A program made the translations under genes and the position numbers. From positions 26,784,001 through 26,848,000 of the forward strand of contig OX597836.1 in assembly GCA_951406725.2 (NCBI GenBank): DNA of 64,000 bases, read 5' to 3'. A model generated the notes under the pieces. It was not told the DNA's origin and did no database searches. It was given only the letters and a program-made list of their open reading frames with translations. Numbering within the stretch: position 1 is the stretch's first letter; each line of letters starts with the position of its first letter. This DNA comes from Octopus vulgaris (Eukaryota). Of this stretch, positions 9,609 to 35,756 are shown in pieces.

Positions 9609-10730
9609 ATGGATTCTTCAAGAGACATTGCCAAAACAGAGATGTCTGCAAACATCCTGGAAATTCCGTTTGATTTGAAGATGAGTTCTAGCCGAACCAT
9701 TCGGTCGAATAAGACTGCAGCAAACAACTTCCGAGAATATCTGAGGGAGAAAGGATTTAACGAGAAGTTTGAAAACTTTGATGTACCAACATTGAACAAG
9801 AGTCTTGGAAATTTCTACATCGATGCCAGGCAGGCTGATGGCACTCACTATAAAGTGAACTCTTTAGAAAACTTTCGATATGGATTAAACCGATACTTGA
9901 GGTCAGCACCTTATTTTAGAAAAATTGATATTATCAAAGATAATGAGTTTTCCGATGCCAATCAGTTTTTCAAGGCAGCGATCATGGAATTGAAAAGACT
10001 TGGTAAAGGCGATGTCGAACATCATCCAGTGATAACAAGTGCCGACCTAAAGTCTTTGTATGAATCTGCTTACTTTGACCCGAGCACACCGGCCGGGTTA
10101 TTGAATAAGGTTCAGTTTGACATACGCATGTATTTCTTTCGACGGGGAATGGAAAACATGTCCAAAATGACGAAATCGACATTTGCCGTCATGAAGGATC
10201 CAGAATCTGGATTGAAAGTTGTTGTCAAAGTGGATGAGTTTGGATCCAGTCCGAAAGAGAACCAGTCTGAAAGCATAACTGGGGTTATGCCGGAGTCAGT
10301 GGGCAGCCGTTTGTGTCCGGTGAAGTCGTTTCAACTGTATCTGAGTAAACTCCATCCGGACTGCGACAGACTTTGGCAGAGACCAAGAGAGAATTCATTC
10401 TTTGATGATGACATCTGGTACTGTCGATCTGCTGTTGGTGAGAAAAACTTGGCCAAATTCATGTCTGGTCTGAGTAGAACATGCTCTCTGTCCAGAACGT
10501 ATACTAACCATTCAATAAGAGCTACTGGGGCAGCCATTCTACGGAAATACTTTGAATCAAATATGATAATGGCTGTGATGGGACAGAAGTCAGCTTCTTA
10601 TCTCTCTGGCTATCAGCGTATTAGCAACAAGGACAAGATCTCCATGGGGCAGGCAATTACAGCAAACCTTTGCAGTGCAGAATCGTCTGCAGACAACTCG
10701 TTTGCAGACGAAGAGAAAAATACACAACAG
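9609..10730 (+). CDS. Coding exon 1: tyrosine recombinase / DUF3504-like domain (374 aa)
   Basis: Non-repetitive ORF with motifs [11 protein letters not shown]...SL...[32 protein letters not shown] and MGQKS...GY, typical of Crypton YR/DUF3504 proteins. Donor CAG|gtaagg at 10730/10731. In-frame TAG upstream at 9579. Confidence 0.9.
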
Positions 10731-34700: not shown

Positions 34701-35756
34701 GTAAATTTCCCCCAAAGGGTCAGTCGAGAGGCCCTGACAGCCTTTGCTGAGTATATGTACAATGGTGTCCTCAGTCTGACTCCCAGACTCTTAGACCAGT
34801 TACTGCTGATCGCTCTACAGCTTGGAATTAAAGAACTGGAATTGCTCTGTGATGCCAACTTGATGACTACCCCAGACAACCGAAAGACTTCAACCTCCAG
34901 CCTTAATAACATCAATTTACACTCTGGGCGTGGCTTCAGGACGACACCTGTTTACCATCGGCAGCAGAACAAAATCCGGCACATTCAGCAACAACAACAA
35001 CAACAACAGCAACAGCAACAACAGCAGTATCTAAACTCACATTCATTCATTGATGACTCGGATGTTCCTATGAACCAGAAGTTCCTGCAGGAGGCACATG
35101 TACGTCAAAGGTTTGGCTATTCGTCATTGCATCAAGACCGCCAATCCGATATGTATCAGGTGGCCAACGCCAATGTAGGTTCTTCGAGCGGATCGGCAAA
35201 ACTCGTAAACTCTGTGGATGATTACCAGCTGGATGATGCCATTAAAATTGAACCAATTAATGTTGATGATGAGAAATATAGCCAACATTCTGACATGGAA
35301 GATCACCTAAATCCGGCCGTTTCATCCAACTTCCATCAAGCGACAGAGGAATTGGTAAATCATGCTAACGAATCTTCTCCTAATGAGAAAGACAACATCC
35401 CTACTTCATCATTTCAGCATCTGTCGACAAACACTTCTAGTTTTTCCGACACGAGATCTCTGATTGACTTTCAAAACGGTTCCACTGTACGTCAGAGACA
35501 GTCGGCCAACAAGAGGAATTCGTCAAATATTAGTTTCACTATTAAAAACGAAAATGTAAGCCAGTTAGATAGCGACCAAGATGACTGTGTAGAGGTGACC
35601 CCTAACGAAAGTACTGTCAGTTCTCGTAAGATGAGTAAATTAGAACTTTTTAGTTCCAGAAACTGTATTGATGTTGAAATGTTACCTGAATGTGAAATGG
35701 GTTCGATTCAGATAACCGATATAAGAAGTGGTTCACACAACACTGCCGTGTCTTGA
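9609..35756 (+). CDS. Spliced gene, 953 aa: Crypton-derived tyrosine-recombinase (DUF3504-like) domain + linker + BTB/POZ domain + disordered C-terminus; join(9609..10730,26951..27032,29238..29329,30496..30644,32818..33094,34617..35756)
   Basis: All five introns are GT..AG with pyrimidine-rich acceptors. Intron phases 0,1,0,2,0 give one uninterrupted frame of 2862 nt ending in TGA at 35754-35756. Additional exons in the 16-kb first intron cannot be excluded. Confidence 0.8.
13154..13652 (-). mobile_element. Non-autonomous Helitron
   Basis: Minus strand reads A|TCTATATATATAAAA...CCCAAGCAACGCCGGG(hairpin)..CTAG|T; AT target, no TSD. Confidence 0.8.
13995..14645. repeat. (ACC)n/(ACT)n compound microsatellite
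   Basis: Seen directly. Confidence 0.95.
14993..15600. repeat. (GAT)n compound microsatellite
   Basis: Seen directly. Confidence 0.95.
21343..21727. repeat. (CA)n microsatellite, ~385 bp
   Basis: Seen directly. Confidence 0.97.
22425..23070 (+). mobile_element. Three head-to-tail copies of SINE family C separated by (ATT)n. Other C copies at 3397-3610(+), 7920-8215(-), 16995-17480(-), 30175-30402(+), 36430-36698(+), 40125-40575(-)
   Basis: GGCAGTGAGCTGGCAGAA..GTTAGC...GAGTTCAAATTCCGCCGAGGTCGACTTTGCCTTTCATCCTTTCGGGGTCGAT unit. Confidence 0.8.
24397..24691. mobile_element. Possible Tigger/pogo-like MITE; a similar Tigger-like end starts at ~44763
   Basis: TA|CAGTAATACCTC...ATTACTG; short, imperfect TIR only. 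Confidence 0.4.
24756..26255 (+). repeat. Direct tandem duplication (24756-25527 and 25528-26255)
   Basis: Same order of unique flank, family B element and family A tail; the distal ~480 bp of the two units are virtually identical. Confidence 0.92.
26951..27032 (+). CDS. Coding exon 2 ([28 protein letters not shown])
   Basis: Long poly-T tract then ttgcag| acceptor; AAAG|gtaaga donor; phase 0 in, phase 1 out. Confidence 0.75.
27888..28125 (-). mobile_element. CR1/L2-clade LINE 3' end
   Basis: Minus frame [22 protein letters not shown]...FKVSLD (FS.R....WN.LP motif), then a short 3'UTR. Confidence 0.7.
28518..29070. mobile_element. piggyBac-type MITE carrying a nested family B element. Related copies at ~2083-2299, ~33897, ~62030-62685
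   Basis: TTAA|CCCTTCAG...CTGAAGGG|TTAA. Confidence 0.75.
29238..29329 (+). CDS. Coding exon 3 ([31 protein letters not shown])
   Basis: ttttacttctag| acceptor; CAG|gtaaca donor; open in the required phase (1 in, 0 out). Confidence 0.75.
29947..30174. repeat. (ATT)n/(ATC)n compound microsatellite
   Basis: Seen directly. Confidence 0.95.
30496..30644 (+). CDS. Coding exon 4 ([50 protein letters not shown])
   Basis: cattgcag| acceptor; CA|gtaagt donor; phase 0 in, phase 2 out. Confidence 0.75.
32818..33094 (+). CDS. Coding exon 5: acidic stretch and N-terminal half of the BTB domain
   Basis: ttttttttcttcag| acceptor (phase 2 completes CAG); encodes [27 protein letters not shown]|gtaagg donor. 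Confidence 0.88.
33505..33840 (-). mobile_element. RTE-X-like LINE 3' fragment
   Basis: [28 protein letters not shown]...[13 protein letters not shown] resembles the post-RT C-terminus of RTE/RTE-X ORFs. Confidence 0.7.
34617..35756 (+). CDS. Coding exon 6 (terminal): C-terminal half of the BTB domain, Q14 tract and S/N/D-rich tail
   Basis: tttctttcag| acceptor; VHKVVLLA...EYMYNG.L...[15 protein letters not shown] fits the BTB consensus; stop TGA. Confidence 0.9.
   Translation, partial: VHKVVLLAICPRLLSMFNADVQANRFLQVNFPQRVSREALTAFAEYMYNGVLSLTPRLLDQLLLIALQLGIKELELLCDANLMTTPDNRKTSTSSLNNINLHSGRGFRTTPVYHRQQNKIRHIQQQQQQQQQQQQQQYLNSHSFIDDSDVPMNQKFLQEAHVRQRFGYSSLHQDRQSDMYQVANANVGSSSGSAKLVNSVDDYQLDDAIKIEPINVDDEKYSQHSDMEDHLNPAVSSNFHQATEELVNHANESSPNEKDNIPTSSFQHLSTNTSSFSDTRSLIDFQNGSTVRQRQSANKRNSSNISFTIKNENVSQLDSDQDDCVEVTPNESTVSSRKMSKLELFSSRNCIDVEMLPECEMGSIQITDIRSGSHNTAVS

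Follow-up and report, generated by a model that had tools for sequence, protein, structure and literature searches.

The nearest described counterpart of the gene studied here is the long isoform of vertebrate KCTD1, which arose after the KCTD1/15 duplication and in which an intronless Crypton-derived exon encoding a DUF3504 domain is spliced onto a pre-existing BTB gene (PMC3212892). According to the same paper all human DUF3504 proteins have lost the tyrosine and the second arginine of the recombinase, and whether the domain binds DNA or protein is left open. For the fly genes mod(mdg4) and lola the accessible part of PMC11426971 gives at least 30 and at least 20 isoforms, respectively, which differ in the C-terminal DNA-binding domain on one BTB; TTK-type BTBs are reported there as arthropod-only. 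In host-transposase fusions such as KRABINER and F-box/Mariner-HTH (helix-turn-helix), a transposon DNA-binding domain was repeatedly joined by splicing to a regulatory domain of the host within one lineage (PMC12062965, whose accessible text does not mention octopus). Here we analysed 64,000 nucleotides of Octopus vulgaris (contig OX597836.1, positions 26,784,001 to 26,848,000; the window), which contain on the forward strand, between window positions 9609 and 35756, a gene that joins a Crypton-type tyrosine recombinase head to a BTB domain. An earlier interpretation from the letters alone, the sequence-only reading, took this gene for a single separate fusion with KCTD1-like architecture. 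This was partly supported but too narrow: the gene belongs to a BTB family whose heads derive from transposons, and is not a one-off.

The gene is real and its six-exon structure was confirmed. As the sequence-only reading had it, all five introns run from GT to AG with cumulative phases 0, 1, 0, 2 and 0, and the open frame encodes 953 amino acids without internal stops. Simple scores of our own were ranked within the gene span: compared with every GT there, the five donors fall at percentiles 98.6-99.9, and compared with every AG, the five acceptors fall at percentiles 97.0-99.9. Coding exon 1 (9609..10730, 374 amino acids) holds the CryptonA head with core-binding and catalytic domain (about residues 25-352) and ends in a phase-0 donor. 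It is followed by the linker exons 2 (26951..27032, 82 bp) and 3 (29238..29329, 92 bp), the predicted linker exon 4 (30496..30644, 149 bp) and exon 5 (32818..33094, 277 bp), which encodes an acidic linker and, from about 33002, the N-terminal part of the BTB and ends at the phase-0 intron of the family. Exon 6 (34617..35756) contributes the remaining BTB (to about 34856; residues 544-654 for the whole domain), a poly-Gln and low-complexity tail and the stop. A Pfam profile search found DUF3504 in exon 1 (E = 8.9e-9) and BTB PF00651 in exon 6 (E = 5.4e-7). No other family passed E 0.01, and BTB_2, zinc finger, BACK and kelch families gave no match at E <= 0.01, as expected from the earlier statement that zinc fingers and kelch repeats are absent.

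The fusion is supported by relatives, since two coleoid proteins, P0001 (926 amino acids, 24 assembly contigs) and P0002 (966 amino acids, 21 assembly contigs, in both cases of at most 4.6 kb), likewise join DUF3504 and BTB; of the five octopus junctions only one was seen directly. P0001 falls into one cluster with a protein of Sepia pharaonis; a cluster member of 927 amino acids occurs on 103 contigs. Compared with both relatives the recombinase of the window protein is 78-80% identical, the BTB about 70% and the rest about 20% (47% over the whole protein for P0001); the linker encoded by exon 4 is weakly like that of P0001 (z = 3.4 against shuffles). Sequence comparison thus showed conservation in decapodiform-type relatives. 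The fused form was found in coleoid cephalopods only and was absent among the gastropod and bivalve relatives returned, which narrows the earlier term "molluscan/cephalopod" fusion. In the octopus genome the head is single-copy, the next best locus being 48% identical (copy counts are lower bounds). It is nested among Crypton recombinases, conserved across distant species and, judging from contigs guessed to be RNA, transcribed. In these respects it agrees with a domesticated DUF3504 gene, as had been proposed.

The head is a whole Cre-like CryptonA recombinase and retains both of the domains with which Cre-like enzymes clamp DNA. Free CryptonA elements, present in bivalves and other marine animals, are likewise intronless two-domain recombinases (50-58% identity); they keep the catalytic lysine and the second histidine and carry no BTB, whereas in the window the recombinase is a single copy that is conserved among coleoids. 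Catalytic residues were aligned with those of 79 free-standing relatives and of P0001 and P0002. Arg179 and Glu182 (10143..10154; among the 79 free relatives, 73 have R and 72 have E), His301-x-x-Arg304 (10509..10520) and the nucleophile Tyr335 (10611..10613; Y in 58 of 79, with 15 gaps) are kept in the octopus as well as in both fused relatives. Two positions are lost: the catalytic lysine (K in 74 of 79) is replaced by Ser213 (10245..10247) and by Gly in P0001 and P0002, and the second His/Trp position, which aligns with a His of XerA (H in 61 of 79, 12 gaps), is occupied by Gln326 (10584..10586) and by Gln in both relatives. The head thus shares the R-H-R-Y tetrad with an active CryptonA transposon and differs from it at the lysine and the second histidine, as well as in having no set of near-identical dispersed copies. 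Since the second arginine and the tyrosine are kept, it has decayed less than the DUF3504 domains of vertebrates.

These residues raise the question whether the head is still an enzyme, i.e. a host-kept tyrosine recombinase or nickase that acts on cephalopod DNA and obtains its lysine from a shifted loop or a partner subunit. The five residues retained in all three fused proteins, the contrast to the human DUF3504 proteins, and an alignment to free elements over the entire C-terminal tyrosine region, which the window head alone among eight octopus heads allows, speak for such an activity. We nevertheless consider it unlikely: the lysine and the second histidine are replaced in all orthologues, the lysine loop is not of the same length in octopus as in P0001/P0002 and is modelled with low confidence (predicted local distance difference test, pLDDT, below 50 at residues 211-220), and at 78-80% overall conservation a few retained residues carry little weight.

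The octopus genome also contains a dispersed Crypton-like family that is 21-22% identical to the window head (L009-L012 and others). Some of its copies carry stops, and copy L010 retains R, K, H, R, H and Y. Crypton-type recombinases were also seen with other partners: in oyster fused to a pyridoxal phosphate (PLP) enzyme (P0004, a 107-member cluster), in abalone with zinc fingers (P0005, P0006), and in a fish GTF2I-repeat protein with C-terminal DUF3504 (P0205, a single model).

Evidence for transcription comes from contigs of sequencing runs that were guessed, not recorded, to be RNA. Junction 27032/29238 was spanned by one contig in each of four out of four runs from four studies, the intron being skipped at its GT..AG borders; by depth arithmetic these contigs cover exons 2 and 3 alone and end at their outer borders. 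At least half of the sequence words sampled from exon 1 were present in 19 of the 24 listed runs, and the runs with all sampled words also contain the spliced exons 2-3. Regarding the five junctions of the sequence-only reading, reads thus bore out one, while 29329/30496, 30644/32818 and 33094/34617 as well as the recombinase-to-exon-2 junction 10730/26951 were not seen in them.

Several observations weigh against the explanation proposed here. Besides the unseen junction 10730/26951, two near-identical runs gave no contigs on exon 1, possibly a filter effect. No full-length octopod copy of the window protein was among the relatives returned by the protein searches, a gap for which we have no explanation. 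Read-through forms of the recombinase exon alone, which may be DNA or unspliced transcript, exist as P0009 (two contigs) and, in the cuttlefish cluster, as P0125. Finally, in the BTB tree the window BTB pairs with Sepia P0180 (95/90) and not with P0001; whole-protein identity, BTB score (443 versus 392), linker and tail favour P0001 as the closer relative. One could suppose that the octopus usually expresses the recombinase exon by itself or as a gene of its own, that exons 2-6 form a BTB-only gene, for which a Sepia model exists (P0123), and that the fusion is minor or was lost in the lineage. We regard this as quite improbable: donor 10730 lies at the 99.9th percentile and is in phase with exon 2, exon 1 words and spliced exons 2-3 occur in the same runs, no alternative head was found in intron 1 or within 200 kb upstream, and the cuttlefish cluster contains the fusion in abundance.

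The second half of the window BTB had 23 matches in the octopus genome at E <= 2e-9, plus a more divergent one on C24, and in every family member examined the BTB is split at the identical place. All eight single-copy Crypton-type exons found are located 5' of a family BTB and in its orientation; they are distributed over five loci. A single origin of the BTB-linked Crypton heads was rejected (approximately unbiased, AU, test, p = 0.00012), and a shared origin of the window head with one head at a sister locus on C3 (X1) was not (p = 0.62). A search with the C3 BTB exon gave 50 representatives with heads including THAP, CENP-B, FLYWCH, STPR, CG-1, ZSWIM3 and DUF3504; every named close one that was looked up is coleoid. 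An exchange of heads is also seen in assembled sequences of other coleoids, where P0180 (THAP) and P0229 (FLYWCH) have a common constant part, as have P0167 and P0211 (P0229 and P0211 rest on one contig each). The single separate fusion of the sequence-only reading is thus most likely separate with respect to KCTD1 and at the same time belongs to a family with many transposon-derived heads.

The most elaborate pattern was found at the C3 locus (G000:C3:149,171,539-149,354,295, minus strand; L034-L052), where about 30 candidate alternative first exons precede one BTB region. Among 33 frames picked by eye out of 152 sense frames in 300 kb, 27 match a Pfam family of DNA-binding domains (E <= 0.003), though part of these matches fall below the curated cut-off; the families are THAP, CENP-B/Tc5, Psq, FLYWCH, Brinker, Tc1 HTH and DUF3504. 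Predicted octopus isoforms place a Crypton head (X1, X3), a CENP-B head (X9/X10) and a Psq head (X32) on the same BTB half. Domain ends were set by eye. The donor with the best score downstream of the domain has phase 0, as the constant BTB acceptors require, in all 19 proximal heads (p ~1e-9 against one third; three ends were shifted after a first pass with 18 of 19) and in 4 of the 11 distal ones. The distal heads often have phase-1 donors, at least one using a small adaptor exon, and four half-THAP exons appear to use one common downstream exon that completes the THAP. In a tblastn search with 30 heads all 33 sites (30 of them self) were on the gene strand and none on the other; since all heads found are on the BTB strand, cis-splicing suffices. 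From gene models and genomic pattern we predict that the heads are alternative first exons of one gene.

Smaller arrays precede a same-strand family BTB at C15:71.43-71.50 Mb (three FLYWCH, CENP-B and two Crypton heads), C24:13.42-13.45 Mb (CENP-B, two FLYWCH and one Crypton) and C2:173.12-173.16 Mb (THAP and Crypton). At G000:C3:148.96-149.16 Mb (L113-L132, L033) there are eleven more tandem BTB paralogues, each with one or two heads of its own (STPR-like, CENP-B, FLYWCH, ZSWIM3/FAR1-like); frames adjoining one of them appear similar to a Helitron Rep/helicase. The C3, C15, C24 and C2 loci share with mod(mdg4) and lola, as far as these are described in the accessible part of PMC11426971, one constant BTB and tens of alternative DNA-binding domains, FLYWCH included. 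They are the mirror image, however: in the fly genes the BTB is N-terminal and the 3' exons vary, whereas in octopus the variable heads are 5', drawn from many transposon classes, and the BTB is 3'. The window gene itself differs from such loci in having a single head.

Taken together, the window gene is probably a dimerising DNA-binding regulator of transcription or chromatin, whose recombinase fold would clamp DNA without recombining it. This view is based on the loss of the general-acid lysine, on the position of the head in the slot of DNA-binding heads, and on the general properties of ZBTB-type BTBs. Against it stand the five of seven active-site residues, tyrosine included, that are kept and would be superfluous for a pure DNA binder. 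In the sequence of events that we propose, a CryptonA element would have inserted 5' of a BTB gene of the family before octopuses and cuttlefish diverged, and its intronless frame would have become the first coding exon through the phase-0 donor. Loss of the lysine and the second histidine would then have stopped efficient strand cleavage, with the phosphate-contacting R, H and R retained for DNA binding. The BTB may pair two heads, or the Crypton head with that of another family member, and co-regulators may be recruited by the BTB and the acidic/Gln-rich tail. The family as a whole would act as a capture platform: a new factor could arise from any transposon exon that encodes a DNA-binding domain, has a compatible donor and lies 5' of the constant BTB exons. 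Leaving catalysis aside, we hold such a coleoid platform to be quite probable. The further-reaching view, in which BTB pairing combines the heads and the window gene alone in the family still encodes a DNA-cutting tyrosine recombinase, kept by the host since the octopus/cuttlefish split and able to rearrange or nick cephalopod DNA, is unlikely.

A different role for the head would be that of a protein-interaction scaffold, as in a co-regulator complex, and not of a sequence-specific DNA binder. The closest Foldseek match of the head is indeed QRICH1 in the Zincore complex, and the published role of DUF3504 would permit it. The head, however, fills the slot taken by THAP, HTH and FLYWCH in the sister genes, the window protein has no other DNA-binding domain, and both clamping domains are retained, so that we give this role little credence.

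The BTB is of the ZBTB/Kelch type and not of the KCTD type, as had been stated. A PDB sequence search that used the Sepia relative as query gave 41 matches, all to KLHL, ZBTB, BACH, BCL6, SLX4 or similar and none to KCTD; comparison with the Atlas likewise indicated a ZBTB/KLHL/BACH type. ZBTB factors share this PF00651 BTB but have it N-terminally, followed by C-terminal C2H2 fingers, whereas in the window protein it lies at residues 544-654 and fingers are absent. BTB-BACK-Kelch Cul3 adaptors carry BACK and kelch after the BTB; the suggested recruitment of Cul3 found no support, because the window BTB is not followed by a BACK domain. The nearest Atlas models are mollusc clusters named "isoform X16" (BTB with transposase-type zinc finger) and "isoform X11" (BTB with C2H2), possibly other multi-isoform BTB loci of molluscs and a source of the window BTB.

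With long KCTD1 the window gene shares a single DUF3504 exon upstream of a BTB, to which it is predicted to be spliced. The KCTD1 BTB is a pentameric KCTD-type domain (BTB_2) with a C-terminal domain (CTD), as far as bioRxiv 10.1101/2024.06.14.599007 is accessible, whereas the window BTB is PF00651 and has no CTD; R304 and Y335 are present where KCTD1 has lost the second arginine and the tyrosine (PMC3212892). The long KCTD1 form is found in vertebrates and the fusion of the window type in coleoids only. Because the BTB types differ and long KCTD1 is reported to have originated within vertebrates, convergence is the most likely cause of the likeness and the joining is most likely independent, in agreement with the sequence-only reading. 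Orthology with long KCTD1, suggested by the identical domain order and by automatic "KCTD1_15" labels on some mussel relatives and the nearest Atlas cluster, is already largely refuted by BTB type and dating, by the absence of KCTD1 among the long matches of the protein searches, and by the labelled mussel proteins having no BTB listed.

Novelties of cephalopod genomes are usually told as expansions of C2H2 and protocadherin genes. In the literature searched we found no account of a Crypton-BTB gene or of C3-type arrays. PMC10027918, as far as accessible, notes octopus THAP and CENP-B proteins with BTB, and LOC106877732 occurs 11 times in a supplement table; its THAP-BTB, CENP-B-BTB and Psq-BTB entries belong to the family of the window gene. 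It treats the BTB as transposon-derived and, in the rows seen, the entries as separate genes; as searched, "isoform" and "Crypton" are absent from its text and "isoform" and "DUF3504" from its supplements. Isoforms of such loci were thus listed as separate entries, and the loci remained hidden among "uncharacterized" multi-isoform genes. Fusions of the KRABINER type are one gene each, as far as described in the accessible part of PMC12062965, whereas in octopus many heads use a common BTB locus, with tyrosine recombinases among them. Transposon-domain capture and multi-isoform BTB loci are known as kinds; the coleoid architecture itself is apparently new. It represents an apparently undescribed cephalopod route to transcription-factor diversity, in which a single locus would yield tens of factors by using transposon domains that it has captured; this resembles mod(mdg4) and lola by convergence, in reversed order. 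The window gene adds a second, most likely independent, Crypton recombinase-BTB joining, and as a domesticated animal DUF3504 with the catalytic tetrad kept it offers a direct test of whether the domain serves as DNA binder, scaffold or enzyme.

Some features surround the exons described above. The strongest acceptor scored, at window position 9120, lies 489 bp 5' of the ATG; exon 1 may therefore have a preceding non-coding exon. Intron 1 contains a block of about 730 bp in tandem repeat (24917-26281). Downstream of the gene, 52661-53356 is presumably a fragment of a mariner-like transposase. The gene is preceded, on the opposite strand, by one for a large HECT ubiquitin ligase (HECT by Pfam; G000:C23:26.598-26.69 Mb, L054-L063), which we take to be HUWE1-like.
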